A stretch of DNA of 47,562 bases from Burkholderiales bacterium (GTDB lineage: Bacteria; Pseudomonadota; Gammaproteobacteria; Burkholderiales; Burkholderiaceae_C): NCBI GenBank assembly GCA_947462065.1, contig CANHNO010000001.1, positions 1 through 47,562 on the forward strand. Reading direction: 5' to 3'. Made by a program: the position numbers and the translations under genes. Under the pieces are notes generated by a model, which was not told the DNA's origin, searched no databases, and was given only the letters and a program-made list of their open reading frames with translations. Positions 7,625-43,602 of the stretch are shown in pieces. The stretch's first letter is position 1, and every line of letters begins with the position of its first letter.

Positions 7625-7637
7625 TACTGCCGCGGGA

Positions 7638-8468: not shown

Positions 8469-9140
8469 TCAGAACGCAGGCCTGCTCGTCAACGCCAGGG
8501 TCTGCGATGTCAGTGGATGCCGCAACTCCAGCCGCGTCGCGTGCAGCATCAGCCGTGTGACGGTGGGCATCTCAGCCGGTGCATACAAGGCATCGCCCAC
8601 GATCGGGTGCCCGATCGCCAGCAGGTGCACCCGCAACTGGTGCGTGCGCCCGGTCAGTGGCTGCAGTGCGAGCCGTGTGGCGCGTGCGGCAGTATCGCGG
8701 TGCAGCACGCGGTAGTGCGTCAGCGATGGCTTGCCCTGCAGCCGATCGACCTTCTGCCGGGGGCGTTGTGGCCAGTCGGCGAGCAGTGGCAGGTCGATCT
8801 CACCAAGGTCTTGCTCGACGAGGCCGTGTACCACCGCCTCGTAGTGCTTGTGCACCTCTCGGCTCTCGAACATGACGCTGATCGCACGCTGCATCGTGGC
8901 GCCACGGGCGAACAGCAGCAGCCCCGAAGTCGCCATGTCGAGCCGGTGCACGGTCTGCGCCTCGGGAAACTGCGCCTGGATTCGCGATACGGCGCAATCG
9001 GCCTTGTCAGCGCCACGACCCGGCACCGACAGCAGGCCGGCTGGCTTGTCGACTGCGACCAGCGCATCGTCGGCATGGACGATCACCAGCGGCGGCAATG
9101 GAGGGAGACTCGGGCGGGCAGACACCCGGCCATCATGCAT
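8469..9140 (-). CDS. RluA-family pseudouridine synthase
   Basis: Catalytic motif HRLDMATSGLLLFA, plus VDKPAGLL. Confidence 0.85.
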   Translation of the reverse strand: MHDGRVSARPSLPPLPPLVIVHADDALVAVDKPAGLLSVPGRGADKADCAVSRIQAQFPEAQTVHRLDMATSGLLLFARGATMQRAISVMFESREVHKHYEAVVHGLVEQDLGEIDLPLLADWPQRPRQKVDRLQGKPSLTHYRVLHRDTAARATRLALQPLTGRTHQLRVHLLAIGHPIVGDALYAPAEMPTVTRLMLHATRLELRHPLTSQTLALTSRPAF

Positions 9141-9157
9141 CGGCTACGCTTGACGGG

Positions 9158-18310: not shown

Positions 18311-18341
18311 GGTGTGGGATGGGTGGTCGTTTGTGTTGTGG

Positions 18342-18896
18342 TCAGAACATTTCGAGCTCGCCGCAGACCTCGACCTCTGCTTCGGCCGTGGCTTCGAAAT
18401 CGAGCCTGTCGTAGGCGCACACGGCCAGGGAGCCGTGGAACCGGGTGTTGCCGTTCAGCGTCAGGCGCGCGTGGGAGCAGTGGCCGTGTTGCAGCAGATG
18501 CAGGTGTGCCAGGCTCTTGCAGTCGAGCACGTACGGCGTGGACATGCCCACGTGCGGAAACGTCCGTCCCAGTCCGCGATTGAGCGCGCCGCAAGCCATG
18601 TTGCCGCACTCGTTGATGGCATCGTTGAAGGCTTGCCCGGACATCTGATCGAGCGAGACACCGTGAAGGCGAGCGAAGTGTTCGCGCGTTGCGGCGTCGG
18701 GCTCGAAGTGGATCCACATCATCAGCCGGAATCGGTACGACGACACCACCAGCATCACCGCAAGGCTCTCGGCGATGTCGTCCATGCTGGCCACCGGAAC
18801 GATGTCGGTGACGCTGTCGTCCGGCCCGGTAAAGGCGCTGCGCAGGCCCTGGTGAAGCAGCTGGTCGAATCCCTGACGGGCGGAGCTGCTGATCAT
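18342..18896 (-). CDS. CheX-like chemotaxis phosphatase family protein
   Basis: 184 aa with AINECGNMACGALNR (E-x2-N motif). ATGA overlap with the upstream gene. Confidence 0.6.
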   Translation of the reverse strand: MISSSARQGFDQLLHQGLRSAFTGPDDSVTDIVPVASMDDIAESLAVMLVVSSYRFRLMMWIHFEPDAATREHFARLHGVSLDQMSGQAFNDAINECGNMACGALNRGLGRTFPHVGMSTPYVLDCKSLAHLHLLQHGHCSHARLTLNGNTRFHGSLAVCAYDRLDFEATAEAEVEVCGELEMF

Positions 18897-19642
18897 GGCT
18901 GCGCACCCTGCTGCGGTGCAAGGGTCTCCATCGCATTGCGCTGCGCCAGATCCAGCCCGACCAGCGCACCCATGATCATCTTGCCGCCAGCCTGCAGGTC
19001 CTGGAAGGTCGCCGTGGTGATCAAGTCGTTTTCGTACAGGCTCTTGCGGTAGTCGGTCGAGAGGGTCTCTGCGCGCGCGGCCAGACTGCGCATTTCTTCG
19101 GCGACGACGGCAAACCCACGACCCTCCGCACCAGCGCGCGCTGCCTCGATGGATGCGTTGAGGGTCACGATCGTCATCTGTCGAACGATGAGCGTGAAGT
19201 CATCGTTCTTGCGGTGCATGCCGCCGTTGTGGGTGAGCACGCCATCCATCGCCGCGTGCCAGCGCTCGAAGGTCTTGTCGACCTGCATCAGCTCCTGCAA
19301 GCCGCGCGCAAGTTCGCCGATCTGCGCCTGCGCCTGCCGCGATGCGCTGTTGGCGGCGGCGACCTCCCGTCGAGTCTCTGCCGTGAGCCTGGCGTGCTCG
19401 GCGGCGGCGCTTCGGGCCGCGGACTCCAGGTCCCGGCAGCGATCCTCGGCCGCTTCGCGCTCCCAGTGAGCCTGCTCGAGTTGCGCGTGCAGTCGTTCGA
19501 TCTCTGCCGACAACGCGGCCTTCTCGGCCACCGCTTCGGGTGAAGGATGGCGCTGCCAGGGCCAGCGGATGTTGCGCGCATCAGGAGGCGTCGCCAGGCC
19601 TGCGGCCTGTGGCAGAGCTTCCGCCATTGCGGTGTCAGACAT
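18893..19642 (-). CDS. soluble minimal MCP-like protein (signalling-tip domain only)
   Basis: 249 aa with no TM segment. N-terminal coiled coil, then TLNASIEAARAGAEGRGFAVVAEEMRSLA, the invariant MCP hairpin tip. Confidence 0.75.
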   Translation of the reverse strand: MSDTAMAEALPQAAGLATPPDARNIRWPWQRHPSPEAVAEKAALSAEIERLHAQLEQAHWEREAAEDRCRDLESAARSAAAEHARLTAETRREVAAANSASRQAQAQIGELARGLQELMQVDKTFERWHAAMDGVLTHNGGMHRKNDDFTLIVRQMTIVTLNASIEAARAGAEGRGFAVVAEEMRSLAARAETLSTDYRKSLYENDLITTATFQDLQAGGKMIMGALVGLDLAQRNAMETLAPQQGAQP

Positions 19643-22001
19643 GTGACACCGCCGTCTGGTGCGTTTCGACCAGACGCACGGCCAACTCGGCTGGCAGCGT
19701 CACGACGGTCCTGAAGGTCACGAAGCCTTCGGCGTTCTCGCCGTCTTGCAGCTCCAGCGCCACCTGCCCACCCTCGCTTTCGACGAACGCCTTCACGGCG
19801 TCCAGGCCGACGCCACGCCCGGAGACTTCCGTCACCTGCTCTGCGGTGGAGAAGCCAGGGCGGAAGATCAACGAAGCCACCGACTGGGGGGACAGCGATT
19901 CGCCAGCGCTCACCAGGCCTGCCGCCTCCGCCTTGTCGCGGATGCGCTTGAGGTTGAGGCCGCGGCCATCGTCTTGCAGCACCAGGCGCAGACCTGCGAC
20001 GTCCAGTGCCGCACTCAGCGTGAGGTGACCGGCGGCGGCCTTGCCCGCGGCCTGGCGTACTTCTGGCGTTTCGATGCCGTGATCCAGCGCATTGCGCAAG
20101 AGATGCATGTAGGTGTTGCGCAGGAGGCCGGCGACCTGGCTGCGAACGACCACGCCGTTGTCATTGATGGTGACCACTGGCTGGACCTTACCCAACTCGC
20201 GCGCCAGCGGCGGCAACGAGTTCAGCACGCCCGACAGCGCGTCCTCGATGCGCTCGGTACCGATGCGCTTGACCGTCTGCCGTGCCTCGATCACAGCGTT
20301 CTGCAGTGACTTGCCGTCATGCAGATCTGCCTGATCCAGCGTCTGGATGAGACGCTGCACCTGCTCCCTGGCAACCATGAAGAACTTGTCGACGCTGCCT
20401 CGGCGACCCGGACCGCTCCGACCCAGCTTCTCCTGATTGAGCGTGTCGTACTCGGTGACGACGACGCGCGCTTCGTTCAGTTCGGTGTTCAGGCGCTCTT
20501 TGTCCCACTCGGCTGTGCCCTTGCGCAGTGCGTCGTAGGTTTCCTCGATGCGGTGCACCACATCAGCCAACTGCAGCAGGCCATGCGTGCGTGCATTGCC
20601 CTTCACGGTGTGCATGTTGCGGAACAGCAGGCCCACCACATCGCTGCGTGATGCATCGTCGGCGGCTGCCGCACCCCGGGAAATCAGGCTGGCGTTCTGC
20701 TCGACGAACTGGACCGCGCCGTCGATGAAGGTCTGGAATTTCTCCTGAGGCACGGCGAGGATTTCGCCGATCAGGGCCAGTTCGCGGCGTCCGGCCTCGG
20801 CGGCGCGCGCCAGGGCTCGCAATTCGGTGACATCGCGCAGGCACAACAGCAATCGTGTGACGTTGCCGGCTCCGTCGGTCATCGGCGCCCAGTGCAGGTC
20901 AAGCACCTTCACCGCGCCGCTGGGCAGGGTCTTCTCGATCTCGGTGGGCAGCAGGTGCGAGTTGAACTCGAAGTTCATCTCGTCCTCGCCGATGCATGCG
21001 GCGATGGACGCGTCGGCCTGAGAAAGCGCATCGGCGCCCAGACCGCTGCTTTCGAAGAGGACGGCGTTGACGTTCTGGCCGGCAAAGCCGTCGGCCTCGA
21101 GGATGGACTTGAGCTGTTCCGAGTATTCAGGGTGGATGCGTCCGCCCGCCTCGATGGTCAGGATGCCCTGCGGGATCGAGTGCAGCATGGCGTGGATGTC
21201 TGCCGTCTTCTGCCGCACCTGCTCGGCACTCTCCTGGATCTTCTCGATCATCTTGTTGAAGGCCACAACGGAGCGACCGACCTCGTCCATGCGCTTGACC
21301 GGCAAGCGCTGGCTGAAGTCCTGGCTGGTCGCGATGGCGGTCATCTTGTTCTCCATGGCGCCGATGGGCAGCACCACCTGCCGGTACAGCAGAAAGCCCA
21401 GCAAGCCCAGACCCAGCGCGGCGCCGACGCTGACCATGGTCAGCGTGGTCTGCGTGTCCTCGAGCTTGGCGTTCAGTGACGCGATGGCGGTATCGCGGCT
21501 GCGGGTCTTTTCAACCTGGAGCGCGGTCATGGCCTCGCCCAACGTGCGCAGGTACTGGTCGACATTGGCGGCGAGCGTGACTTCGGCCAGCTCCTGCTGC
21601 CCTTCGAGCTTGAACTTGGCGGTCTCGTCGATGGCGGCGAAGTAGTTCTTCATGTCGTCCAGCGCAAACCGCACCAGCCCGCGCTGGGCTTCGTTGTCTG
21701 CCGAGGCCGACTGGGCCTCGAGTGCGCCTTGCAGTTCGGACTTGCGCTGGGAAAGCGCTTTATGACCCTCCTCGACGCTGGCGTTGTCGACGGCCGAAAC
21801 CATGCCGAGCGCCGTGATCTGCACGTCCTTCAGCTGGGTCATCAGGGAGATGGCCTTGGCGGAGCTGGGCACCACGCCCTCTGTGACCGATTTCACGTCG
21901 ATGGCGCCAGAGCGAGCCTGGAAAACGGCGAATCCTCCAACGAAGCCCAATGCCACGAAGGCCACGAGCACGAGAAAGATGATGCGTTGGCGAATATTCA
22001 C
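19635..22001 (-). CDS. membrane sensor kinase: periplasmic helical domain - HAMP - PAS-like - Hpt - CheA-type ATPase, no CheW-like domain
   Basis: Two TM segments flank a ~165-aa periplasmic helical domain. HAMP (PIGAMENKMTAIA...). PAS-like (SIPQGILTIEAGG). Hpt (LFRNMHTVKGNAR). CheA-type N, G1 and G2 boxes (LLRNALDHGIE, DDGRGL, SGRGVGLDAV). The protein ends about 40 aa after G2. Confidence 0.8.
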   Translation of the reverse strand: MNIRQRIIFLVLVAFVALGFVGGFAVFQARSGAIDVKSVTEGVVPSSAKAISLMTQLKDVQITALGMVSAVDNASVEEGHKALSQRKSELQGALEAQSASADNEAQRGLVRFALDDMKNYFAAIDETAKFKLEGQQELAEVTLAANVDQYLRTLGEAMTALQVEKTRSRDTAIASLNAKLEDTQTTLTMVSVGAALGLGLLGFLLYRQVVLPIGAMENKMTAIATSQDFSQRLPVKRMDEVGRSVVAFNKMIEKIQESAEQVRQKTADIHAMLHSIPQGILTIEAGGRIHPEYSEQLKSILEADGFAGQNVNAVLFESSGLGADALSQADASIAACIGEDEMNFEFNSHLLPTEIEKTLPSGAVKVLDLHWAPMTDGAGNVTRLLLCLRDVTELRALARAAEAGRRELALIGEILAVPQEKFQTFIDGAVQFVEQNASLISRGAAAADDASRSDVVGLLFRNMHTVKGNARTHGLLQLADVVHRIEETYDALRKGTAEWDKERLNTELNEARVVVTEYDTLNQEKLGRSGPGRRGSVDKFFMVAREQVQRLIQTLDQADLHDGKSLQNAVIEARQTVKRIGTERIEDALSGVLNSLPPLARELGKVQPVVTINDNGVVVRSQVAGLLRNTYMHLLRNALDHGIETPEVRQAAGKAAAGHLTLSAALDVAGLRLVLQDDGRGLNLKRIRDKAEAAGLVSAGESLSPQSVASLIFRPGFSTAEQVTEVSGRGVGLDAVKAFVESEGGQVALELQDGENAEGFVTFRTVVTLPAELAVRLVETHQTAVSHV

Positions 22002-24490: not shown

Positions 24491-25924
24491 ATGACACACG
24501 CCTTGATCGTCGATGACGATGTGGGTTCGGCGTCCACCCTGAAGGCGCTGATCATGGCCGAGCACTGCACGGTCGCGGTGGTGCACAACCTGCGCGATGC
24601 CCGACGCCAGATCGCCCTGCAGCAACCCGAGCTGGTGCTGCTCGACCTGCAGCTGCCCGACGGCAACGGCATGGACCTGTTCGCCGAGCCCGAGTTGCTG
24701 GCCAATTCAGAGGTGGTGCTGATCACCGGCCACGCCTCGCTGGAGACCTCGATCCAGGCGCTGCGACTGGGTGCTGCTGACTACCTTGTGAAACCCATCA
24801 ACCTGCGTCAGCTGCAGGGTGTGCTGTCGCGGGTGACGAAGCCGGCGCTGCTCAAGGCCGAGGTCGAGACGCTGGCCGCGCAGGTGGCGCCGAGTGGCCA
24901 CTTCGGCGCGCTGTGGGGCCGCGCGCCGGCGATGCTGCGGCTCTATGAGCAGATCGCCCGGGTGGCGTTGACCAGCGTGACGGTGTTCATCACCGGCGAA
25001 AGCGGCAGCGGCAAGGAGGTCGTCGCGCAGACGGTGCACGACCTGAGCCGCCGCCGCAAGCAGCCGTTTCTGGCTGTCAATTGCGGTGCGATCTCGCCCA
25101 ACCTCATCGAAAGCGAGATCTTCGGCCACGAGAAAGGCAGCTTCACCGGTGCCGATCGCCAGCACCTGGGATTTTTCGAGCGTGCCAGCGGCGGCACGCT
25201 GTTCCTCGACGAGATCACCGAAATGCCGATGGAGCTGCAGGTCAAGCTGCTGCGCGTGCTGGAGACGGGCTGCTTCATGCGCGTGGGCTCGACACAGATG
25301 CAGGCGGCCGATGTGCGGGTGCTGGCCGCCACCAACCGCCGTCCCGAGCAAGCGGTCGCCACCGGCAAGCTGCGCGAAGACCTGCTGTACCGGCTGAATG
25401 TGTTCCCGATCGAGCTGCCGCCGCTGCGCGAGCGGCTCAGCGACGTCGGTCTGCTGGCGCAGCATTTCCTGAACGCTTTTGGCGTCCAGGAAGGGCAGGC
25501 CAAGCATTTCACTTCAGCCGCACTGGATCGGCTCCTGCAATATCGCTGGCCCGGCAATGTGCGCGAGCTGCGCAATGCGGTGCAGCGCGCCTATGTGATG
25601 GCTGCAGGCGATGTGATCGACCCGCAATGGTTGCCTCAGCCTTCGCCGCTGACCGAGCCGACTGTTGGCGCTCAGGTGGCGGCAATTCCGTCGGCCATCC
25701 GGCGAACTGCTTCGGCGTCCGACGACGCATTCGAGCAGGAGTCGGTCACGCTGTCCATCGGCACCTCGCTGGCGACGGCCGAGCGCACGCTGATCCTAGC
25801 CACGCTGCGCCACCACCACCACCAGAAGGAGCGCACGGCGGCGGCGCTGGGCATCAGCCTGAAGACGCTTTACAACCGTTTGAAGGAGTACGCCGCCGAC
25901 GGCCTGGACCATGCGGCGCATTGA
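24491..25924 (+). CDS. sigma-54-dependent response regulator (NtrC family: REC - AAA+ - Fis HTH)
   Basis: REC domain (IVDDD...[11 protein letters not shown]), Walker [15 protein letters not shown] loop, GGTLFLDEI, and a C-terminal [18 protein letters not shown]. Confidence 0.92.
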
Positions 25925-25959: not shown

Positions 25960-26631
25960 TCAGCCTTTCAGCGCTGCCGTGCTTTCCCCCAGTGGAAGCC
26001 GACTGTGGCGGTCGGCCAGGATCAGCGGCGTCACCGCTTCCCAGCCAGTGCAGCTGCTGTGCGGCGTGCGAAGCGGCGAGCGGCGCCATTTGGTTTCGCG
26101 CCCGGTGTCCAGCAGCAGCGCGCGACAGCCCGCGCGGCGCCCGGCCTCGATGTCGTCGAGCGTGTCACCGACCATCCAGGATGCTGCCAGGTCGATTCGG
26201 TGGGCACGCGCCGCCCGGATCAGCATGCCGGGAGCCGGTGTGCGGCACAGGCAAGCGGGCTGGCCTCCGGCTGTCGGTGTGTGCGGGCACACCACGAAGT
26301 CGGTCAGCGTGATGCCTGCAGCCTCGCTCAGGTGACGCTCCAGCACTGCTTGCAACTGCGAGAACTCCCAGCGGGTGAAGCGCCCGAGCGACAGGCCGCT
26401 CTGGTTGGTCACCACGATCAAGGCCATTCCGGTCGCCGCCAGCGCGGCCAGCGAATCGCAGGCGCCGGTCCGAAAGCGCAGCTGCGTCGGGTCGGCGTTG
26501 GGTTGCAGAGGGTTGAGCAGGGCCCCGTCCTGGTCGATGAACACTGCTGCCCGTGCCGCAACGGGGCTGCGGGCAACCGTGGGGATGCTCGGGCGGGCGA
26601 TCATGTCGTGCGTGGAGGCGGTGCGTGGCAT
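25960..26631 (-). CDS. HAD-IIIA family phosphatase (GmhB-like)
   Basis: Motifs FIDQDGAL, VVTNQSG and MVGDTLDDIEAG. The start is uncertain (26631 or 26604). Confidence 0.7.
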   Translation of the reverse strand: MPRTASTHDMIARPSIPTVARSPVAARAAVFIDQDGALLNPLQPNADPTQLRFRTGACDSLAALAATGMALIVVTNQSGLSLGRFTRWEFSQLQAVLERHLSEAAGITLTDFVVCPHTPTAGGQPACLCRTPAPGMLIRAARAHRIDLAASWMVGDTLDDIEAGRRAGCRALLLDTGRETKWRRSPLRTPHSSCTGWEAVTPLILADRHSRLPLGESTAALKG

Positions 26632-26742
26632 GAGGCCGTCGTGGCAATCGGCGTACCGGCTGCGTCAAGTGCCGCAGGGCGTCGCGGCAGGAGCGCCGAT
26701 TGCCACGCTGCAAGCCTTCTCCTGCTGCGCGTCCGGCCTTTG

Positions 26743-28336: not shown

Positions 28337-29854
28337 TCACGGGTGCGCGGCAGGGCCTTCAATGGCGCCATGCAGTGCGGCGACCAGCTCCGCCGGCTGA
28401 CACGGTTTGTCCAGCACGATGAAGTCTTCCCCGGCCAGGGTTTTTGCCGCGTAACCGCTGATCAGTACCACGGGCAGATCGGGGCAGGCGTCTCGCAGCA
28501 CGCGCGCCAGGCCCAGACCGTCCATGCCACCGGGCATCTTGATGTCCGACAGCACCACATCGAAAGCGGGTTCGTCGGCGATCAGGCGCAACGCGCCTTG
28601 CGGATCGACGACGCGACTCACCTCGCAGCCTAGCCGACTGAGCAGGGCCTCGGTCACTTCGGCAAGGTCGTCGTTGTCTTCCACCAGCAGCAATCGCGCG
28701 CCTTCGATCGAGGGTGCGGGGCTGTCGGGTTCCGCTGCGCCCAGGGGCGCCATGGCGTCCTCGCAGGCGGGTAGCAGCAGGGACACGGTGGTGCCCAACC
28801 CCTCGGTGCTGGTCAGCCGCGCGGTGCCGCCCGCCTGCACGCAGAAGCCCATCACCTGGGCCAGACTCAGTCCGGTGCCCTGGCCTGCTTCCTTGGTGGT
28901 GAAGAAGGGCTCGAAAACACGCCCGGCCACCTCGTCGTCGATGCCAAGGCCATCGTCGCTGACGGTGATCAGCACATAGTCGCCGTCCGGCAGGTCGGGC
29001 ACCTCATCGTCGTGCGCGCGTCTTGCCTGCAGGCGCAGGTGCCCGCCCAGGGGCATGGCATCGCGCGCATTCAGGCTCAGGTTGGTCAGCGCGAGCTCGA
29101 GTTCATGGGCGTCCACCCGGACCAGGGGTGTGCCCGGCGCCACCGCCACCGTGACCTCGGTGCGCGCGCCCGTCACCGTTTGCAGCAGATCCCGCAGCTC
29201 ATGCAGTGCGCCCGCCAGATCAATCGGCCTGGCGCATCCCGGCTGCTGCGCTGCGAAGCGCAGCAGCTGCTTTGTCAGACGGCTGCCGACGGCCACGGCC
29301 CGCAAGGTGGCGGCCAACGGTGCCTGCAGTTCGGCAGCGGCGGACTGGCGCTGCATCAGGTGGGCGCTGTTGCTGATCACGCCCAGCAGGTTGTTGAAAT
29401 CGTGCGCGACGCCGCCGGTCAGGCGTCCCAGCGCCTCGATGTGCTGGCTGCGCGAAATGCGCTGCTCGGCCTCGCGCGTTCGTGTCAAAGCTGCGGCGAC
29501 CTCGAGCTCGAGCTTGCTGCGGGAACTGCGCAATCCGTCGGCGGCCTGGGTCAGTGCCGCAGCGACTTCGTTGCATTCCGCGATTCCGGTGGCCTGTGTT
29601 GCCACCAACTCGCCGGCCTGCATGCGGTCTGCGGCCTGCTTCAGAGAGTGCAGCGGTGCGGTGATACGGCCTGCCATCCAGAAGGCAGCCCACATCGCCA
29701 GGCCCAGCAACAGCAGCGAACCTGCCGCAAGCTTCTGCACCGATTGCGGGTCGGCGGCGTCGTTGTCGATGACGAACCAAAGGACCGCCACCACGCCCGG
29801 CACCCAGACCGACATGACGAGCAGCAACAGGCGGGAGCGGATGGAAAGGGTCAT
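28337..29854 (-). CDS. hybrid sensor histidine kinase / response regulator
   Basis: Two TM segments with a short loop, HAMP-like linker, H-box GGVAHDFNNLL, HATPase (DDGLGI, GQGTGLSLAQV) and a C-terminal REC domain (LLLVEDNDD...SDIKMPGGMDG). Confidence 0.9.
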   Translation of the reverse strand: MTLSIRSRLLLLVMSVWVPGVVAVLWFVIDNDAADPQSVQKLAAGSLLLLGLAMWAAFWMAGRITAPLHSLKQAADRMQAGELVATQATGIAECNEVAAALTQAADGLRSSRSKLELEVAAALTRTREAEQRISRSQHIEALGRLTGGVAHDFNNLLGVISNSAHLMQRQSAAAELQAPLAATLRAVAVGSRLTKQLLRFAAQQPGCARPIDLAGALHELRDLLQTVTGARTEVTVAVAPGTPLVRVDAHELELALTNLSLNARDAMPLGGHLRLQARRAHDDEVPDLPDGDYVLITVSDDGLGIDDEVAGRVFEPFFTTKEAGQGTGLSLAQVMGFCVQAGGTARLTSTEGLGTTVSLLLPACEDAMAPLGAAEPDSPAPSIEGARLLLVEDNDDLAEVTEALLSRLGCEVSRVVDPQGALRLIADEPAFDVVLSDIKMPGGMDGLGLARVLRDACPDLPVVLISGYAAKTLAGEDFIVLDKPCQPAELVAALHGAIEGPAAHP

Positions 29855-31653: not shown

Positions 31654-33312
31654 TCAGGCGGGTTGCTGCGGGCTGGCCTCGACCGTCACGGGCGCGAGAG
31701 GCAGCGTGACGACGAATTCGCTGCCCATGCCCTTGCCGGCGCTGTGTGCCGTGACGGTGCCGCCATGCGCTTTCACCAGTTCTTCCACCACCGTCAGGCC
31801 CAGCCCCAGCCCGTTGGTGTTGAACTTGTGGGCAGCCTCGTCCTGCATGAACGGCTCGAAGATGTGCGGGAGGGCTCGCTCATGGATGCCAATGCCGTTG
31901 TCGCGCACCGTCAGCACCACCGCGTCGACGCTGCGGCTCATCGACAACACGATCTCGCCCGAAATCGGCGTGTACTTCGATGCGTTGTCCAGCAGGTTGC
32001 GCAGCACCTGCGCCAGCCGTACCGGGTCGCAGTTCAACGCCAACTCGCCCGGCTGCAGATGCACCAGGAAGTGTTGCAGCCGGGTGTCGATCGCCGGACG
32101 GCTGGCCTCGACCACGTCGTTGATGAGTGTGATCAGATTCACCTCACTGAGCTCCAGCCGCAGCTTGCTGCCTTGCGCACGCGACACATCGAGCAGGTCA
32201 CTGACCAGCCGTGACATCTGTGCCGCCTGTCGCTCGATCACTGCATTTATCCGTGGCAGTGGAGGTGGAATGTCTTCGCTGGCGATCAGCGCGGATGCGT
32301 TGCGGATCGCCGTCAATGGCGAACGCAACTCGTGAACCGCTTGTGCCATTCGCAGGTTGTGCCGCTTCAGTGCTTTCTCGGCAGCGTCCTGCAGCCGTTT
32401 TGCATCGAGTGCGCCGAGCAGCAACTTCTCGTTGGCCTCCTGGAGCAATTGGTGCCGCTCCACATGCGCGTTGATGGCCTCCTGGGAACTGGTCACGGGC
32501 AGGCGCAGCGACTCGGGAAAGGCGACTTGCAATGCGTGGCCGGAAACAGGATCGGAAGCCTTGGACACCGCATAGCCCAAGCCCCGCCGCTTTGCCTCGT
32601 ACATGGCGGCGTCTGCCGCGTCGATCAGCGTGGTCACATCTTCACCATCGTCGGGGTACACGCTGATGCCGATGCTGGCGCTCAAGCGCAGCACATGTCC
32701 GGCGAGTTGCGTCGGCACAGCGAGCGCGGCATTGATCTTGTCGGCAATGGCGCCGGCATCGCTGGCGTGCGCCACATCGTCGAGCAGGATCAGGAATTCA
32801 TCGCCCCCAAAGCGACTGACGGTGTCCGAGGCGCGAACGACCGAAACCATGCAACGGGCGGCCAGTTGCAAAACCTGATCGCCGAAGTGGTGTCCCAGCG
32901 CGTCGTTGACCTGCTTGAAGCCATTCAGGTCGACAAACAGCACTGCCATGCGGCGATTGCGACGTCGCCCCCCGGCGATGGCCTGGGTGAAACGGTCGAG
33001 GAACAGCATCCGGTTGGGCAGCTGTGTCAGTGCGTCGAGCGCGGCCACACGAGACATTTCCAACATCGAACGCATCGCCTCGTCGGATTCGACCTTCGAC
33101 TGCATCAGCGCCAGCACCAGCTGCTCGTTGGCTTCCAGCAGATCGGAGGCCTTGCCGGAGTCGGCCACAGGGCTTCGCGCCTCAGACCTGTCATCCCGCA
33201 GGGACTGCAGTGCCCTGCGCGCCCTGTCTACCTCGGTGCGCAATTCGAGCAACTCAAGCCTGGCGCGGACCAACTCTGCGTTGTCGGCGTCGCTGTGACC
33301 CGGATCGTTCAT
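31654..33312 (-). CDS. GGDEF diguanylate cyclase fused to a HisKA-HATPase histidine kinase
   Basis: N-terminal coiled coil. An apparently intact GGDEF domain (RASD I-site-like RxxD five residues before RFGGDEF). H-box HELRSPLTAI. N box LLDNASKYT, G boxes DNGIGI and GLGLGL. Confidence 0.88.
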   Translation of the reverse strand: MNDPGHSDADNAELVRARLELLELRTEVDRARRALQSLRDDRSEARSPVADSGKASDLLEANEQLVLALMQSKVESDEAMRSMLEMSRVAALDALTQLPNRMLFLDRFTQAIAGGRRRNRRMAVLFVDLNGFKQVNDALGHHFGDQVLQLAARCMVSVVRASDTVSRFGGDEFLILLDDVAHASDAGAIADKINAALAVPTQLAGHVLRLSASIGISVYPDDGEDVTTLIDAADAAMYEAKRRGLGYAVSKASDPVSGHALQVAFPESLRLPVTSSQEAINAHVERHQLLQEANEKLLLGALDAKRLQDAAEKALKRHNLRMAQAVHELRSPLTAIRNASALIASEDIPPPLPRINAVIERQAAQMSRLVSDLLDVSRAQGSKLRLELSEVNLITLINDVVEASRPAIDTRLQHFLVHLQPGELALNCDPVRLAQVLRNLLDNASKYTPISGEIVLSMSRSVDAVVLTVRDNGIGIHERALPHIFEPFMQDEAAHKFNTNGLGLGLTVVEELVKAHGGTVTAHSAGKGMGSEFVVTLPLAPVTVEASPQQPA

Positions 33313-33335: not shown

Positions 33336-34871
33336 TCAGAGAAGCCCGCGTTCGGGATCGGAGCGAGTCATCGCAGCCACGGTCTTTTGGGTCGGTCGAC
33401 CGCCCAGTAGCCCTTCCTGGTCAACGAGCCTGCTGCCAATGTGAATGCCGTCGCCTTCGATGTGGAACTCGCGCAGTTCGTCGGAATGCGCGCTGGCACG
33501 CACCTTCACCACGGCCATCACGCGACGCAGGCGACTGTCGACCTCGATGTAGCGCTGCACGATGATCGCGTCGGTCATGAACGCGGTGCCATAGGGGCTG
33601 AAGCGCAGGTCGGTGTAGCGGTCCTCGAGCTCGGAGGTCATCAGCATCGTCACGCCGGCCCCGGTCATCGCCTTCACCAGTCGCGACATCGACTCGCGGA
33701 AGTCGTCTCGGAAGGTCGGGGCGACCGACAGCTCGAAGCTGGAGAGCGAATCAATGACGACGCGCGTGGCCTTCAGTCGGCGGATCTCGTCGAGCAGCAG
33801 CATCACGATCTCGTCGATCGACAGATCGGGCGCGCGGCTGTCCACCACGCCGACCTGGCCGCTGGCGATCAGTTCGGTGACCAGCCGGTTGCGCGAGCGG
33901 TTCGGGTGCTGCTCGAACACCGCGATGACGCCGGTCTCGCCGAGGCGCGCGCCTTCGGCGAGGAACGCGGCTGCGAGGATGCTCTTGCCCGAACCGGATG
34001 GTCCGGCGACCAGCAGCGAATAACCCCGTGGCAGTCCGCCGCCCATCATCTCGTCGAGGTGCGGCACCCCCATCGGGACGCGCGAACTCGATGTCGACGC
34101 GGGTGCGGCTGACGGGGCCGCGAGCGCGATCGAGCCGGCAGTGTCCTCGCCCTGTGGTTGCGAGATGGCAGGCGCGAAAACGCGCACGCCGCTCGGGTCG
34201 ATGCGAAAGGTATGCAGCCCGGGCAGCGTGGGCTGGCCGCGCATCTTCATGATCTCCATCTTGCGCACCACCGAATTGCGCATCACGCTCTGACGCATCC
34301 AGATCAGGCCGTCGGCCACAGTGAACACCGGGTTTGCGTCCGTCTCGTCGAAGCACTCTCCGATCAGGAAGGTGGTGGCCTGCCAGCTGGTCATCAGCAT
34401 GCCGAGCTGCTGCACGAACGATTGGAGATTCGTACGTGGATCGGGCGCGGTCTGCTGGGCAGCGTTGGCCAGCACCACCGAGCGGAACGAGTCGACGAAC
34501 ACCAGCGACGGGCCGTGGGTGGTCACTTCTTCGACGATGCGGCGCAGCACACGGTCGAGATCGCCGGCCATGGCCTCCTCGGACAGGTTGATGAAGCGGA
34601 TCGCGCGCGTCACCGCCTCGGTGTCGAAGAAATCGAACTGCTGCTGGTAGCGAAGCATCTTCAGCGGCGGCTCGCCCAGCACGGTGAAGTACAGCGCAGG
34701 TCGTTCGGGCGTTGCCAGCGCAAACATGATCTGGTGAGCGAGCGTGGTCTTGCCGCAGCCGGGCTGCCCGGCTATCAGGTTGAACGAGAACTCCGGCAGC
34801 CCACCGCCGAGCACCTCGTCCAGCCCCGGCACGCCGGTGCGCAGGCGGTTGATGGTCACTTTGGTGTTCAT
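33336..34871 (-). CDS. KaiC-like double RecA-domain ATPase
   Basis: 511 aa. TGVPGLDEVLGGGLP with Walker A GQPGCGKTT in domain 1. GVPHLDEMMGGGLP with GPSGSGKS in domain 2. Start at ATG 34871. Confidence 0.85.
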   Translation of the reverse strand: MNTKVTINRLRTGVPGLDEVLGGGLPEFSFNLIAGQPGCGKTTLAHQIMFALATPERPALYFTVLGEPPLKMLRYQQQFDFFDTEAVTRAIRFINLSEEAMAGDLDRVLRRIVEEVTTHGPSLVFVDSFRSVVLANAAQQTAPDPRTNLQSFVQQLGMLMTSWQATTFLIGECFDETDANPVFTVADGLIWMRQSVMRNSVVRKMEIMKMRGQPTLPGLHTFRIDPSGVRVFAPAISQPQGEDTAGSIALAAPSAAPASTSSSRVPMGVPHLDEMMGGGLPRGYSLLVAGPSGSGKSILAAAFLAEGARLGETGVIAVFEQHPNRSRNRLVTELIASGQVGVVDSRAPDLSIDEIVMLLLDEIRRLKATRVVIDSLSSFELSVAPTFRDDFRESMSRLVKAMTGAGVTMLMTSELEDRYTDLRFSPYGTAFMTDAIIVQRYIEVDSRLRRVMAVVKVRASAHSDELREFHIEGDGIHIGSRLVDQEGLLGGRPTQKTVAAMTRSDPERGLL

Positions 34872-35311
34872 GGCTTGGGATCCTTGGCAGCGGAGTCGCT
34901 CGACGTGGCGACCCACACAGGGCGTATCAGTCGCTCGGTCAACGAGGGCCCGACCACGCTGGACAACAGATCGTGGAAGGTGGTGAAAAGCGTGGTGGCA
35001 CCAGCCATGGCAGCAACGGCGCTCTGCTGGCAAAGCAGTGGGGTCAATTCGGAGAAGTCGGCGACGGCTGGTGCGACGTCATCAGCCACGCTCAGCCACT
35101 GGTGGTCTTGCGCGGTGATGTGGACGCTGCGCTGGTAGAGCGCAGCCAAACCGCGTTTGCCGATGATCGGCACCAACACCGCATCAATTCCGCCCCAGGT
35201 GACGAGGACGGCGTCTGCAATCTGTGCGCTATCGGCGCTCGGCGGGACCCTGCTCGCGAAATGGGTTGCTACCGAAACGCCCAACGGGTTTTCCGTGGAC
35301 ATCGTCAGCAA
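34868..35311 (-). CDS. hypothetical protein, first gene of the KaiC-like operon
   Basis: 147 aa (or 144 aa from ATG 35302) with GC3-biased codons. ATGA overlap with the KaiC-like start. No family recognised. Confidence 0.55.
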   Translation of the reverse strand: MLTMSTENPLGVSVATHFASRVPPSADSAQIADAVLVTWGGIDAVLVPIIGKRGLAALYQRSVHITAQDHQWLSVADDVAPAVADFSELTPLLCQQSAVAAMAGATTLFTTFHDLLSSVVGPSLTERLIRPVWVATSSDSAAKDPKP

Positions 35312-35389
35312 TCTTTCTGTGCGTGGACTTTGATACTAAGCGTCGTGCCCGCGATCGGGAACAAAAAATGTGTCACGGTTTGATTCACA

Positions 35390-35404
35390 GCAAACGGCGT
35401 GCCG
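35390..35404 (-). promoter_or_regulatory. sigma-54-type promoter
   Basis: Minus-strand reading CGGCACG-ccgt-TTGC(T), a near-consensus match to TGGCACG-N4-TTGCW. It lies about 80 nt upstream of start 35311. Confidence 0.6.
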
Positions 35405-35485
35405 CGGCGGCGCATGAACCCGACTTGCTTTTTTTGGGAAGGGCGTTTGGCACGCGCAAATCGGCAAGATTTACCGCAAGGCTCT

Positions 35486-35508
35486 CCGCATCGGTAAACG
35501 CGATGCGG
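35486..35508. promoter_or_regulatory. palindrome midway between divergent sigma-54 promoters (candidate activator site)
   Basis: CCGCATCG-gtaaacg-CGATGCGG. It lies about 95-115 bp from both -12 elements. Confidence 0.3.
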
Positions 35509-35605
35509 CCGCGGCGCTTGCTCACTGCGGTGCGCTCCCGCATCACAGTCCAAACGCCGGGCGTGCGGGCTGTTTGGGCGACGAGGGCTGCGCCTGGCCT
35601 CGGCA

Positions 35606-35620
35606 CGGCACGGGGGTTGC
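35606..35620 (+). promoter_or_regulatory. sigma-54-type promoter upstream of the rpoN paralog
   Basis: CGGCACG-gggg-TTGC(G), 64 nt upstream of TTG 35684. Confidence 0.55.
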
Positions 35621-35683
35621 GATCAGAAACACCAAAGACGAGCCAAACGGCTGGTCTCTCAACACTCCTTCAGGAGCCTCCCG

Positions 35684-37147
35684 TTGTCATCGCTGCATTT
35701 CTTGGCCGACACGCGACACGCACAGACGCTGTCGCCACGCTTTCAGCATGCGGTGCGTCTGCTGCAGCTGTCTTCGATGGACTTCGCCGCGACGGTGCGC
35801 GATGTGTTGGGCCAGAACCCATTCCTCGAACTCGAAGAGGGCCTGTCCGACGGTGACGGTTCAGGCGACGATGGCGAGGCTGACCGCAGCGACGACGAGC
35901 GTGTCGAGGCGGACGCGCCCTATGACGGCAACACGCTGTCCGCTGCCATGGACGGGATGTCCGATGAGCGGAGTGACGACCGAGAGCTGTGGCAGGTCGA
36001 TGCGCCGTCGTCGCAGCGGCCGGCGGGTGACGGCGATCTGTCGGCGCTGGACATGATGGCGGTCGAAACGCCGTTGAATGCGCACCTCAACGCCCAGCTC
36101 GATCTGCAGCCCTTGGCCACCCGGGAGCGGTGGCTCGCGCGCACCATCGTCGAATCGCTCGACGACGACGGCTACCTGCGTGCATCGCTGGCTGAACTGT
36201 GCGAGCTGTGCGAGTTGAGCCCGCCGATCCGGCTGTCTGAGATGCAGGCGGCATTGGTGCGTGTGCAGGCGCTGGACCCGGCGGGTGTGGCGGCGTGCAG
36301 TGTGGCCGAGTGCCTTCGGCTGCAACTGCCATCGATCGAATGCCCGCAGCTGCGCGCACTGGCTGAGCGCGTGTTGAACCAGCACCTGGGGCTGCTGGCG
36401 GCACGCGATGTCCCTGCGCTGGCGCGCTCGCTGGGTGAGCCCGTGTCGAGGATGCAGCAGGTGTGCGATCGCATTCGTCGACTCGATCCGCGGCCGGGCT
36501 GGCGGTTCAGCTCGACGCGCATTGCCTATGTGGTGCCCGATGTGGTGGTGAAGAAAGTTCGCGGCGAATGGCGGGTGCACCTGAACCCGTCGGTGATCCC
36601 TCGCGTTCGCCTCAATCAGATGTATGCCGACCTGTTCAAGCGTCACCGCACCCCATCCCACGCCGACATGGCGAGTCAGTTGCAGGAAGCGCGGTGGACC
36701 GTCAAGAACGTCGAGCAGCGCTTTTCGACCATCCTCGACGTCGCCGAAGCGATCGTCAGGCGGCAGCGGCATTTCCTCGAGTTCGGACCGATGGCGATGA
36801 AGCCCCTGGGCCTGAAGGAGATCGCCGACGAACTCGGCATCCATGAATCGACCGTCTCGCGGGTGACCAACAACAAGTTCATCGCCACACCCAGTGGCGT
36901 GTTCGAGCTGAAGCACTTCTTCTCCCGAGCGATGGTCACGGCCAATGGCAGCACGTGCTCCGGCACCGCGATCCGCGGTTTGCTCAAGGACATGATCGCT
37001 GCAGAGGCACCGCAGTCGCCGCTGTCCGACGCCGAGATCACGCGGCAACTGGCGCAGCAGGGGCTGGTGGTCGCACGTCGCACCGTCACCAAGTACCGGC
37101 AGTTGCTGCGCATCGATGCGGTCGAGCGCCGGCGCCGGCAGGCCTGA
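35684..37147 (+). CDS. rpoN: RNA polymerase sigma-54 factor (probable second copy)
   Basis: Region I TLSPRFQHAVRLLQLSS, acidic region II, HTH GIHESTVSRVTNNKF, and RpoN box ARRTVTKYR. TTG start as given by the ORF track. Confidence 0.9.
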   Translation: MSSLHFLADTRHAQTLSPRFQHAVRLLQLSSMDFAATVRDVLGQNPFLELEEGLSDGDGSGDDGEADRSDDERVEADAPYDGNTLSAAMDGMSDERSDDRELWQVDAPSSQRPAGDGDLSALDMMAVETPLNAHLNAQLDLQPLATRERWLARTIVESLDDDGYLRASLAELCELCELSPPIRLSEMQAALVRVQALDPAGVAACSVAECLRLQLPSIECPQLRALAERVLNQHLGLLAARDVPALARSLGEPVSRMQQVCDRIRRLDPRPGWRFSSTRIAYVVPDVVVKKVRGEWRVHLNPSVIPRVRLNQMYADLFKRHRTPSHADMASQLQEARWTVKNVEQRFSTILDVAEAIVRRQRHFLEFGPMAMKPLGLKEIADELGIHESTVSRVTNNKFIATPSGVFELKHFFSRAMVTANGSTCSGTAIRGLLKDMIAAEAPQSPLSDAEITRQLAQQGLVVARRTVTKYRQLLRIDAVERRRRQA

Positions 37148-37168: not shown

Positions 37169-37183
37169 CGGCACGTCGCTTGC
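37169..37183 (+). promoter_or_regulatory. sigma-54-type promoter
   Basis: CGGCACG-tcgc-TTGC(C), 22 nt after the rpoN stop and 82 nt upstream of ATG 37265. Confidence 0.6.
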
Positions 37184-37264
37184 CAATGGTTACATCGACA
37201 GCGGTACCGAGCCCTTGCTGCCGCGTCGGATGGTTTGCCGTGCCTTGAACCCTGGAGTACCCCA

Positions 37265-37855
37265 ATGAACACCGACATGGATCTGATCAAGCGCTGGCCG
37301 CAGGCGGTCACGCTGGATATCGCCGTTCACTACGAACGCAGCGCGCCCGACCGGCGGACCTATCGCCTTGCACCCTGCGATCGCACGCCGCTGGTTCGGG
37401 TGATGACTCCCCAGCACCGTGGGTCCCCGCTTGAACTGCAGCGAATGAATTGGTCGCAGTTGCCGGGCCGCACGCTGTACCTGCGCAGCCTGGGTGTGCT
37501 GGCGGTTCACTTGTTTGGCGAAGCGGCGATGCCGCCGCGTGCGCGCGGCGCGCCGCTGTGGCAACACATCAGCGCCGGCATCTCGACCGATCAGAACGCT
37601 GCCCACCAGATCTACTTCGAACTGGATGCGGTTGACGACGCGCAGGCGGTGCTGCGTTACCGCTGCTCCGAAACTCAGCCGCCGGTCCGGCGGGTGGTCG
37701 CGCTCGATGTGCTCGACGCTGATCCGCTTCGCGCGCTGTTGCGCATTGGCATGGCGCGGGTCCGGCCGGTCCTGATGAGCAATGCAACGCTCGCGCCCTC
37801 TGCGCCGCATACCAGGCACGTTCATGTGGCGCCTGAGCTGGCGCAGCAAGCGTGA
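37265..37855 (+). CDS. hypothetical protein
   Basis: 196 aa from ATG 37265 (MNTDMDLIKRW). No family recognised. Confidence 0.5.
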   Translation: MNTDMDLIKRWPQAVTLDIAVHYERSAPDRRTYRLAPCDRTPLVRVMTPQHRGSPLELQRMNWSQLPGRTLYLRSLGVLAVHLFGEAAMPPRARGAPLWQHISAGISTDQNAAHQIYFELDAVDDAQAVLRYRCSETQPPVRRVVALDVLDADPLRALLRIGMARVRPVLMSNATLAPSAPHTRHVHVAPELAQQA

Positions 37856-37880
37856 CCCGTTCCCCGCATCAGCTGCTGCC

Positions 37881-38564
37881 ATGATTGCCGTGATCATCTC
37901 GGCACGCAACGACGAGGCGCACCTCGGTACCTGCCTGCGGTCGGTGCGCGAGGCCTCGCGCCGACGCCGCCTGGGCGGCGAGGCGGTGCTGAGGCTGGTT
38001 GTGCTCGACACCTGTACCGACGGCAGCGCGGCCATCGCCCGCGATGGCGGTGCGCACACGCTGAGGCTGCAGACGGGCAACATCGGGGCGGCGCGGGCGC
38101 AGGGCGCGCAGTGGGCTGTAGACCGCAGCGCACGCTGGCTGGCGTTCACCGATGCCGAGTCTGTCGTGGCCCCCGACTGGCTGTCGATCCAGGTGGCGCT
38201 CGGCACCGATGTGGTCTGCGGGACGGTCGGTGTGCGGGACTGGGGCGAGGACGGCGAGCGCCTGCGTCGCCACTACGACGCCCACTACACCGATGCCGAT
38301 GGGCACCAGCACATCCATGGTGCCAATCTGGGTGTCAGCGCCGATGCCTATCGCCGCGCAGGCGGCTTCCATCCGATGGCGATCAGCGACGATGTGGCGC
38401 TGGTGCGCGCGCTGCAGGCCAGTGGGGCGACGATCGCCTGGTCGGCGGCGCCCCGGGTATCGACCAGCGCCCAGCGCCTGTTCAGCGCACCAGTCGGCTT
38501 CGGCGCGACCGCTCAGCGAATCGATGCCGAGAACCGCGCTTTTGGCACGGGGGCCGCTGCGTGA
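37881..38564 (+). CDS. glycosyltransferase family 2 protein
   Basis: MIAVIISARNDEAHLGTCL...DTCTDGS...FTDAES, GT-A/GT2 N-terminal signatures including a DxD-like DAE. Confidence 0.75.
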   Translation: MIAVIISARNDEAHLGTCLRSVREASRRRRLGGEAVLRLVVLDTCTDGSAAIARDGGAHTLRLQTGNIGAARAQGAQWAVDRSARWLAFTDAESVVAPDWLSIQVALGTDVVCGTVGVRDWGEDGERLRRHYDAHYTDADGHQHIHGANLGVSADAYRRAGGFHPMAISDDVALVRALQASGATIAWSAAPRVSTSAQRLFSAPVGFGATAQRIDAENRAFGTGAAA

Positions 38565-38856: not shown

Positions 38857-38871
38857 CGGCATGTCGTTTGC
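38857..38871 (+). promoter_or_regulatory. sigma-54-type promoter
   Basis: CGGCATG-tcgt-TTGC(C), 51 nt upstream of ATG 38922. Confidence 0.5.
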
Positions 38872-38921
38872 CATGGTCAGGCATGAAGTGCCATTGCGAA
38901 ACCCCATCCTCCCGCTTTGCG

Positions 38922-39668
38922 ATGCCCGCCCCGTTGCGCAGTGCAGCGTTGGACATCAGCCAAAGTGCCCACAAGAATCGCCTGCTGGCGCGGCTGCCTG
39001 ATGAGGCATGGCAGCGCTGGCTTCCGCAGCTCGAATGGGTCGATTTTCAGCAGGGACAGGTATTGCACGAGTCGGGCACCTTGCCCAGCCACGCCTACTT
39101 CCCGACAACGGCCATCCTGTCGCTGCTCAACGTGACGCAGGATGGCGCCTCGACCGAAATCGCTGCTGTCGGCAATGAGGGATTGGTCGGGGTGTCGCTG
39201 TTCATGGGCGGTGTCTCGACCTGCAGCCGTGCCGTGGTTCAAAGCGCTGGCTTCGGGTTGCGACTGAGGGCGCAGGCGATGCGGGCCGAGTTCGAGCGGT
39301 CTCCCGAGGTGATGCAGGTTCTGCTGCGCTACACCCAGGCACTGATGACGCAGATGGGCCAGACGGCAGTGTGCAACCGCCACCATTCGATCGAGCAGCA
39401 ACTGTGCCGCTGCCTGCTGTTGAACCTGGACCGGCTGGGGGGCAATGAGATCGTCATGACCCATGAGCTGATCGCCGGCACGCTGGGCGTGCGCCGCGAG
39501 GGGGTCACCGAAACGGCACTCAAGCTGCAGGCGGCCGGCTTGATCCGCTACGCGCGTGGGCACATCACCGTGCTCGATCGCCGCGGGCTGGAGAGCCGCG
39601 CCTGCGAGTGCTATGAGGTGGTGAGGAAGGAATACGATCGATTGCTGACGGACAGAATGGCCGCTTGA
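38922..39668 (+). CDS. Crp/Fnr family transcriptional regulator
   Basis: cNMP-binding-like beta-barrel (NRLLARLP...YFPTTAILSLL...VGNEGLVG) and a C-terminal HTH (THELIAGTLGVRREGVTETALKLQAAGLI). Alternative ATG at 38883. Confidence 0.85.
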   Translation: MPAPLRSAALDISQSAHKNRLLARLPDEAWQRWLPQLEWVDFQQGQVLHESGTLPSHAYFPTTAILSLLNVTQDGASTEIAAVGNEGLVGVSLFMGGVSTCSRAVVQSAGFGLRLRAQAMRAEFERSPEVMQVLLRYTQALMTQMGQTAVCNRHHSIEQQLCRCLLLNLDRLGGNEIVMTHELIAGTLGVRREGVTETALKLQAAGLIRYARGHITVLDRRGLESRACECYEVVRKEYDRLLTDRMAA

Positions 39669-43412: not shown

Positions 43413-43488
43413 GGGTTGTTAGCTCAGTTGGTAGAGCAGCGGACTTTTAATCCGTAGGTCGTGGGTTCGAGTCCCGCACAACCCACCA
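43413..43488 (+). tRNA. tRNA-Lys (anticodon UUU)
   Basis: Hand-folded cloverleaf with acceptor GGGTTGT/ACAACCC, D-arm AGCTCAGTTGGTAGAGC, anticodon loop ACTTTTAAT, T-arm GTGGGTTCGAGTCCCGC, and encoded CCA. Confidence 0.9.
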
Positions 43489-43526
43489 CCGGCACAAATC
43501 GTTTTCATCCGAAGGCGTCAAGCTTC

Positions 43527-43602
43527 GGGCTCTTAGCTCAGTTGGTAGAGCAGCGGACTCTTAATCCGTAGGTCGAGTGTTCGAGTCACTCAGGGCCCAC
43601 CA
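43527..43602 (+). tRNA. tRNA-Lys (anticodon CUU)
   Basis: Acceptor GGGCTCT/AGGGCCC (one G-U pair), anticodon loop ACTCTTAAT, T-arm GAGTGTTCGAGTCACTC, and encoded CCA. Confidence 0.88.

Follow-up and report, generated by a model that had tools for sequence, protein, structure and literature searches.

How is an additional copy of rpoN, the gene for sigma-54, switched on, and which sigma-54 starts it? The question is raised by a 47,562-nt stretch of contig CANHNO010000001.1 from a Rubrivivax-like Burkholderiales bacterium (the window; 47.5 kb, G+C 65%; all coordinates below are window positions), in which an rpoN gene and an operon encoding a KaiC-like ATPase diverge from a common intergenic region. 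A sequence-only reading of the window had proposed back-to-back sigma-54 promoters in that region, with a palindrome between them as the enhancer. Comparison with related loci supports the promoters, shifts the enhancer to a neighbouring palindrome and separates the promoters of the locus into two classes. The explanation that we favour, at a probability of roughly 70%, is that a shared enhancer-dependent control region, served by a linked candidate activator, starts a sigma-54 cascade.

Relatives were taken from a scan of one genome per bacterial species, which gave 80 loci whose RpoN is 52–95% identical to that of the window. All 80 are from Burkholderiales, including Rubrivivax, Rhizobacter, Hydrogenophaga, Ideonella, Aquabacterium, Caldimonas, Delftia and Comamonas. 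Adding the window and loci from Ralstonia, a Comamonadaceae plasmid and Rubrivivax gelatinosus (L084; CP181388.1, positions 1–21434) led to a set of 83 loci, with RpoN 44–95% identical to the window's. Eleven of the relatives (L001–L010 and L057) share the gene order orf147-kaiC-GGDEF/histidine kinase, divergent from rpoN-o196-(family-2 glycosyltransferase)-crp-tolB, and form together with the window the syntenic set of 12. In a search for rpoN-type proteins, the best 120 matches listed were each at least 61% identical. No relevant publication came up when the literature was searched for rpoN2 in Comamonadaceae genera.

A probable accessory rpoN gene

The product of the window gene contains the three sigma-54 domains Sigma54_AID (PF00309), Sigma54_CBD (PF04963) and Sigma54_DBD (PF04552), each above the Pfam cut-off, in agreement with the sequence-only gene call. 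In the alignment, Region I, the helix-turn-helix and the RpoN box are intact and read LSPRFQHAVRLLQL, HESTVSRVTNNKF and ARRTVTKYR. The top NCBIfam model for the protein, NF009118, is the same as for Ralstonia RpoN2. The position of the start codon is kept across the syntenic loci as TTG, GTG or ATG.

In E. coli, the housekeeping rpoN gene is flanked by lptA, lptB, hpf and ptsN, and the same genes flank housekeeping rpoN in other Proteobacteria. Searching the window and 82 loci with the E. coli proteins (tblastn) revealed no LptA, LptB, Hpf or PtsN gene near rpoN; the sole matches were two unrelated ABC-ATPases at 27–29% identity. Because the window gene lies outside this lptB-rpoN-hpf-ptsN context, we infer with good support that it is an accessory copy, that is, a paralog. 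Aquincola tertiaricarbonis, a member of the same family as the window organism, has four RpoN paralogues (PMC9850573), and a Comamonadaceae strain carries an rpoN copy on a plasmid (RpoN 45% identical to the window's).

A conserved −24/−12 promoter ahead of rpoN

The rpoN gene is preceded by a sigma-54-type motif on the plus strand (P_rpoN), the core of which (35606–35620) reads CGGCACGGGGGTTGC. It follows the pattern CGGCACG-N4-TTGC with exact GG/GC spacing, and the base before the GG is a C where the consensus has T. The core ends 63–64 nt before the TTG start codon (35684); transcription is predicted to start near 35632, leaving a 5′ untranslated region of about 52 nt. The window has three copies of the pattern GGCACG-N4-TTGC where 0.43 would be expected, a count that none of 100 shuffles reached. 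The copies are confined to 1.8 kb around rpoN, and the third (37170–37183) is just past the rpoN stop codon.

This promoter, which the sequence-only reading had already called, is invariant in all 12 syntenic loci: when their intergenic regions are aligned, CGGCACGGGGGTTGCGAT is essentially invariant at a mean column identity of 41%. About 71 of the 80 scanned loci have a relaxed −24/−12 pattern 46–137 nt before rpoN, and 74 of the 83 homologous loci (Sphaerotilaceae and Comamonadaceae) have a sigma-54 motif 30–160 nt upstream, against a chance of about 2% per upstream region. The motif is thus a trait of the whole lineage, and the proposal of a sigma-54-dependent rpoN copy appears well founded, given this conservation of its promoter. 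We also considered that the motifs are chance matches in G+C-rich DNA. At 65% G+C, relaxed sigma-54 patterns do arise randomly at a low rate, but the shuffled sequences, the recurrence in 74 loci and an invariant block amid divergent intergenic DNA all contradict this view, and the conservation already refutes it.

Two overlapping GGCAC words (CGGCACGGCACG) at 35601–35612 stand ahead of the P_rpoN spacer, and the doubling is also seen in L003, L005, L006 and L010. No Rfam family matched the intergenic region at its gathering score (best E-value 0.08).

A sigma-54 gene behind a sigma-54 promoter is established biology, since two precedents exist. In Ralstonia solanacearum GMI1000, the sigma-54 promoter TGGCACAGCCTTTGCA lies 63 nt ahead of rpoN2, which is no longer expressed when rpoN1 is mutated (PMC4371752). 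The rhizobial prxS-rpoN2 operons depend on NifA and sigma-54 (PMC3538637). The description of the window arrangement as uncommon was therefore overstated.

A palindrome conserved across the clade

The conserved upstream element is a block at 35462–35497, kept in 12 of 12 syntenic loci as CGGcAagAttTaCcGcAA, six variable bases and CCGcaTCGGtAA. It opens with the palindrome CGGCAAGATTTACCG, of the form CGGCAA-N3-TTRCCG (35462–35476), followed by CAA. Across the wider set, 54 of 73 loci have CGGCAA-N3-TTGCCG with up to two mismatches 65–186 bp before the −24 motif (search span 30–260 bp upstream of P_rpoN); the background rate is 0.03 per 230 bp. Sixty-nine loci yield the consensus CGGCAAnAtTTgCCGCAA, or CGGCAAnAtTT[G/A]CCGCAA. 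In the window, 35462–35476 is the sole copy with one mismatch, and copies with two mismatches are at chance level (9 against 4.8 expected). Across the loci, copies with no or one mismatch mostly precede rpoN rather than the other promoters; three stray one-mismatch copies were also noted.

The palindrome starts 145 bp before the −24 motif of P_rpoN. Measured from its centre, the distance to the −12 element is about 150 bp for P_rpoN and about 78 bp for P_orf147, the sigma-54-type promoter facing the KaiC-like operon; the palindrome lies upstream of both. Over the loci, the distances between palindrome and promoter cluster near 104, 115, 137, 146 and 156 bp. The second part of the conserved block, CCGCATCGGTAA, contains a third half-site, CGGTAA, 30 bp from the first; an inverted repeat TTTACCG/CGGTAAA was detected in association with it, and similar blocks (ATCGGTAA) are present in L024, L028, L030, L033 and L034. 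The conserved palindrome was also considered as a sigma-54 site in its own right: it resembles GGCA...TTGC, but its GG-to-GC spacing is 2 nt short.

The sequence-only reading had assigned the enhancer to a different repeat, CCGCATCG-N7-CGATGCGG, which is indeed a perfect inverted repeat, with 8-bp arms and a 7-nt loop, 95–110 bp from both −12 elements. Within 60 bp, there are three occurrences of the word CCGCATC or its complement. Only L001, however, has the right arm of the repeat intact; L002 has one mismatch in it, and in the nine other syntenic loci the arm is unalignable. L001 and L002 are the closest relatives (RpoN 93–95% identical). When the 381-bp region is simulated as a first-order Markov sequence, 17% of the simulations also contain a perfect inverted repeat of 8 bp or more with a loop of up to 20 nt, and the left arm and loop of the window repeat are overlapped by the second conserved block, which accounts for the left arm. 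The repeat could be a lineage-specific extra site. That it is the enhancer, or the operator of another regulator, is nevertheless quite unlikely, as the element kept across the clade is the neighbouring palindrome at 35462–35476.

These data also bear on a repressive role of the −24/−12 motif. Unactivated sigma-54 holoenzyme sitting on the motif could repress rpoN, in a negative autoregulation like that of the single-copy rpoN of some rhizobia; for R. leguminosarum, such autoregulation is mentioned as reported in a passage of PMC3538637. A simple consensus scan of 35250–35750, which is weak evidence, found no sigma-70 promoter overlapping the motif or elsewhere in this interval, and no terminator. 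An enhancer-type palindrome is conserved at activation distance, and the homologous Ralstonia gene depends positively on sigma-54. We therefore regard repression as very improbable. On our preferred reading, 35303–35683 is a shared control region with two divergent enhancer-dependent sigma-54 promoters. Its enhancer would consist of the palindrome at 35462–35476 together with the CGGTAA half-site.

A linked candidate activator

The window encodes a single enhancer-binding protein, a REC-AAA+-HTH_8 protein whose sigma-54 contact loop reads GSFTGA (24491–25924). The sequence-only reading had suggested it as a candidate to be tried on the palindrome, a good choice in view of its genetic linkage to the rpoN lineage. 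In 31 of the 80 loci, an orthologue with the same loop (full-length identity 58–70%) is encoded no more than about 4.5 kb from rpoN. The window protein is 56% identical to an RSp1667-like enhancer-binding protein beside Ralstonia rpoN2 and 61% identical to the one beside rpoN on the Comamonadaceae plasmid. On that plasmid (L082), the activator gene is divergent from rpoN with one small open reading frame (ORF) between them, the sigma-54 promoter lies 52 nt before rpoN, and a perfect CGGCAATATTTGCCG is located 88 bp upstream of the −24 element.

Because its orthologues adjoin rpoN in 31 loci and in Ralstonia, the 24491–25924 product is the likely activator and the most likely protein to bind the enhancer. 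It would probably be phosphorylated by the hybrid histidine kinase-receiver encoded nearby; 13 other loci have an orthologue of this kinase (44–60% identity) a few kb or less from rpoN. The Crp-like regulator was judged a less likely enhancer binder, because it is present only in the syntenic subgroup, while the enhancer is clade-wide.

In L050 and similar Caldimonas-type loci (about 7400–10500), rpoN is followed by a promoter ending in TTGCC and a histidine kinase gene, on which the GSFTGA activator gene converges. This layout suggests that the paralog might feed back onto its own signalling input.

Two promoter classes and a predicted cascade

P_rpoN is not the only sigma-54 motif of the plus strand. 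P_o196 lies 22 nt past the rpoN stop codon, is kept in all 11 other syntenic loci and precedes the conserved ORF o196. P_crp precedes the gene for a Crp/Fnr-family regulator and is found in the window and nine of the 11 other syntenic loci; in the remaining two, L003 and L006, the retrieved stretches show no Crp-like gene. With its in-frame ATG (38883) precisely 12 nt past the C of the −12 GC (38871), the Crp-like gene may be transcribed from its sigma-54 promoter as a leaderless mRNA. In those syntenic loci where the gene is present, GCATGAAGTGCC is kept at a similar distance. A further sigma-54-like motif, on the minus strand, ends 12–13 nt before the ATG (26631) of the HAD-hydrolase ORF adjoining the activator gene, a second possible leaderless transcript.

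Across the loci, the promoters fall into two classes that differ most sharply at −11. The P_rpoN motifs (n = 74) have G (42), A (19) or T (13) at this position and never C, have T before the GG (−26) in 51% of cases and have a G-rich spacer. The other sigma-54 motifs that precede ORFs at the same loci (n = 169) have C at −11 in 134 cases (79%; T in 22, A in 8, G in 5), T at −26 in only 9% and a CCG spacer. The published sigma-54 consensus ends in TTGCW (quoted in PMC4371752). In Cereibacter sphaeroides, the base at −11 helps determine which RpoN paralog uses a promoter (PMC11999139, PMC3162934).

We propose that P_rpoN, whose class reads GGCACGGnnGTTGC followed by G, A or T, drives the accessory sigma-54 gene and is itself more probably started by the housekeeping sigma-54, given its distinct promoter class and the precedent of Ralstonia rpoN2. 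The accessory sigma-54 would most likely read the second class, typified by CGGCACGYCGNTTGCC with C at −11, which is represented upstream of o196 and the glycosyltransferase gene, upstream of the Crp-like gene and on the divergent side. There, P_orf147 would drive orf147 and the genes for the KaiC-like ATPase and a GGDEF-histidine kinase. Regulation would thus run from one sigma-54 to the other, as a sigma cascade and not as a closed self-activating loop. The sequence-only reading had left the choice between an autoregulatory loop and the housekeeping RpoN open; the difference between the promoter classes leans towards the latter.

The accessory sigma-54 might instead read its own promoter and, after a trigger, lock on without the housekeeping sigma-54. 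The unusual CGGCAC −24 core that P_rpoN shares with the neighbouring promoters in the window would suit such closed positive autoregulation, as would the intact DNA-binding domain and RpoN box of the accessory protein. However, P_rpoN differs from its neighbours in all three class features described above, the homologous Ralstonia promoter needs RpoN1, and a strictly self-dependent sigma gene would be unable to start. We consider the closed loop unlikely; a cascade start followed by self-reinforcement is compatible with the results.

At the R. gelatinosus locus, nine sigma-54 motifs, mostly ending in TTGCC, are each positioned 40–90 nt upstream of a gene in the surroundings of the rpoN paralog. 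The products of these genes are BON, hemerythrin, DUF2383, phospholipase-D-like (PLD-like), CBS and transglycosylase-associated proteins, and the set looks like a stress-type regulon.

The divergent operon and its second candidate promoter

P_orf147 was found on the minus strand as previously called, with the same CGGCACG-N4-TTGC core as P_rpoN. It ends 87 nt before the ATG of orf147 (35302), and its transcription start is predicted near 35378. It is kept in seven of the 12 syntenic loci (the window and L001–L006), degenerate in L057 and absent from L007–L010; about 36 of the 80 loci have some kind of divergent sigma-54 motif ahead of rpoN.

Closer to orf147, about 30 nt upstream of its ATG, lies a −10-like hexamer, TAnnAT. 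Its invariant columns (G/A/T..T/A at 35332–35338) are kept in all 12 loci, including those that lack the sigma-54 promoter; a scan of 35250–35750 found no −35 partner. The hexamer may be a sigma-70-type proximal promoter of the orf147-kaiC operon. The minus-strand promoter region (35329–35404) is a tandem duplication with units 50–54 bp apart, and the proximal copy has lost the −12 GC and carries the invariant TAnnAT. The operon may have two promoters, because the hexamer is invariant and lies inside a degenerate copy of the sigma-54 promoter.

The gene calls on this side also agree with the sequence-only reading, and the operon consists of orf147, the KaiC-like gene and the GGDEF-histidine kinase gene (Table 1). 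Orf147 is 42–92% identical (tblastn) in the 11 other syntenic loci; Pfam, NCBIfam and PDB sequence searches gave no match for it, nor for o196. The ATG of the KaiC-like gene overlaps the orf147 stop codon (ATGA, 34868–34871), which implies translational coupling of the two genes, and the orf147 product may be a partner of the KaiC-like ATPase. The GGDEF-histidine kinase gene is syntenic in L001–L008 and L057.

Table 1. Features of the locus in window coordinates.
Feature	Position	Strand	Description
Enhancer-binding protein	24491–25924	+	REC-AAA+-HTH_8 (Pfam), GSFTGA loop; candidate activator acting at 35462–35497
Sigma-54-like motif	26643–26658	−	CGGTACGCCGATTGCC, C at −11; ahead of HAD-hydrolase ORF (25960–26631)
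Hybrid histidine kinase-receiver	28337–29854	−	Pfam domains; candidate sensor
GGDEF-histidine kinase fusion	31654–33312	−	Third gene of divergent operon; Pfam GGDEF, HisKA, HATPase_c
KaiC-like double-domain ATPase	33336–34871	−	Pfam KaiC, E = 2e-67
orf147	34868–35302	−	First gene of divergent operon; conserved protein, 144 aa
TAnnAT hexamer (TAGTAT)	35333–35338	−	−10-like
Degenerate tandem copy of P_orf147	35338–35352	−	GGGCACGACGCTTAG; −12 GC replaced by AG; direct repeats D1, D2
P_orf147/kaiC	35390–35404	−	CGGCACGCCGTTTGC(T), sigma-54 type
Conserved enhancer-like palindrome	35462–35479		CGGCAAGATTTACCG then CAA
Second conserved block	35486–35497		CCGCATCGGTAA; half-site CGGTAA at 35492–35497
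Less conserved inverted repeat	35486–35508		CCGCATCG-N7-CGATGCGG; arms 35486–35493 and 35501–35508
P_rpoN	35606–35621	+	CGGCACGGGGGTTGCG, G at −11; core match and conservation
rpoN paralog	35684–37147	+	487 aa, TTG start; AGGAG at 35672–35676, 7 nt upstream of start
P_o196	37169–37184	+	CGGCACGTCGCTTGCC, C at −11
o196	37265–37855	+	Conserved 196-aa ORF; then family-2 glycosyltransferase gene (37782–38564)
P_crp	38857–38872	+	CGGCATGTCGTTTGCC, C at −11
Crp/Fnr-family regulator	38883–39668	+	Pfam cNMP_binding, HTH_Crp_2

Elsewhere in the window, a chemotaxis-like cluster on the minus strand (17336–22001) encodes a CheX-like protein, a short protein that matches the MCP signalling domain, and a HAMP-Hpt-HATPase kinase. 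A pair of tRNA genes, separated by 114 bp, is located at 43413–43599; beyond it, the G+C content falls from about 65% to about 60% up to the window end.

Points that weigh against the cascade

Several observations weigh against the cascade proposed above. For the window organism, the circuit is deduced from sequence comparison, and the status of rpoN as a paralog from gene context within a 47.5-kb window. The activator is paired with the enhancer through co-occurrence, and its gene is loosely linked, 10 kb away from the site. The distances between palindrome and promoter show no significant helical phasing at 10.5 bp (Rayleigh p = 0.33, unique distances).

The second promoter class is likewise open to objection. 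The contrast in C at −11 between the P_rpoN motifs and the others (Fisher p = 1e-35) is measured on sequences that are not independent, so that the p value is inflated by shared ancestry. When the DNA ahead of 166 promoters with C at −11 was searched for 5-mer dyads and 7-mers, no enhancer common to them emerged; the sole words recovered were rpoN coding words (TVTKYR) that precede P_o196. On the divergent side, the window P_orf147 has T and not C at −11, and the promoter is missing from four of the 12 syntenic loci and degenerate in one. Because of this inconstancy, and because TAnnAT is closer to the gene, the orf147 operon may run mainly from another promoter.

Relation to known systems

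The closest counterpart of the window gene is Ralstonia rpoN2 (RSp1671), which is also accessory, lies outside the lptB-rpoN-hpf context, has a −24/−12 promoter about 60 nt upstream and is linked to a gene for a GSFTGA activator. Lundgren et al. describe Ralstonia RSp1667 and RSp1668 as GSFTGA activators whose predicted targets include rpoN2 (PMC4676750). In contrast to the window promoter, which is known from its sequence, the dependence of the Ralstonia promoter on RpoN1 is experimental. The two RpoN proteins are only 44% identical. Ralstonia has two activators encoded directly upstream of rpoN2, whereas the window has the single, more distant one, and no match to CGGCAA-N3-TTGCCG with up to two mismatches was found upstream of Ralstonia rpoN2. 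The neighbours in the window (KaiC-like, GGDEF kinase, Crp-like) differ from those in Ralstonia, where the neighbouring promoter ends in TTGCA and not TTGCC.

The prxS-rpoN2 operons of Rhizobium etli and Mesorhizobium loti resemble the window locus in that a second rpoN copy is expressed from a sigma-54 promoter requiring an enhancer-binding protein. There, however, the activator is NifA, the setting is symbiotic nitrogen fixation, and rpoN2 comes second in the operon and has a weak internal promoter; neither the lineage (Alphaproteobacteria) nor the context is related to that of the window locus. RpoN1–4 of Cereibacter (Rhodobacter) sphaeroides offer a parallel for the promoter classes: each paralog has its own activator and promoter subclass, and the subclasses split at −11 (PMC11999139, PMC3162934), the position that also best separates the classes seen here. 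Unlike in Cereibacter, specificity at the window locus is estimated from promoter statistics, and the paralog lineages are not orthologous.

Implications

The window locus is a homologous further example of a known circuit, an assignment that is well supported, and the concept is not new. What is added is a clade-wide enhancer with a linked activator, and two promoter classes. Since sigma-54 control of a sigma-54 gene was already established, the gain is one of detail and breadth. For binding and mutation work, the reassignment of the enhancer points to the right 15 bp. About 80 relatives yield a testable wiring: a single enhancer sequence, a single candidate activator, and separate promoter classes for the sigma gene and for its neighbours.

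How bacteria with several sigma-54 copies keep them apart, and what the extra copies serve, is an old question; Ralstonia rpoN2 has no known phenotype, and the function of RpoN2 has been called enigmatic (PMC4371752). As a tentative answer, which we hold to be possible but rather less than probable, the accessory sigma-54 of Sphaerotilaceae and Comamonadaceae may define a promoter dialect of its own (CGGCACGYCGNTTGCC, C at −11, T rare at −26). The housekeeping sigma-54 and one dedicated GSFTGA activator at CGGCAA-N3-TTGCCG would switch its gene on, and it would drive a dispersed regulon of signalling or stress type. This regulon may include the KaiC-like ATPase, the GGDEF kinase and the Crp-like regulator here, and the BON, hemerythrin, DUF2383, phospholipase-D, CBS and transglycosylase-associated genes in R. 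gelatinosus. If this is true, the promoter dialect would give a function to the ‘enigmatic’ rpoN2-type paralogs, and these bacteria would possess a two-tier sigma-54 cascade with a readable promoter code.

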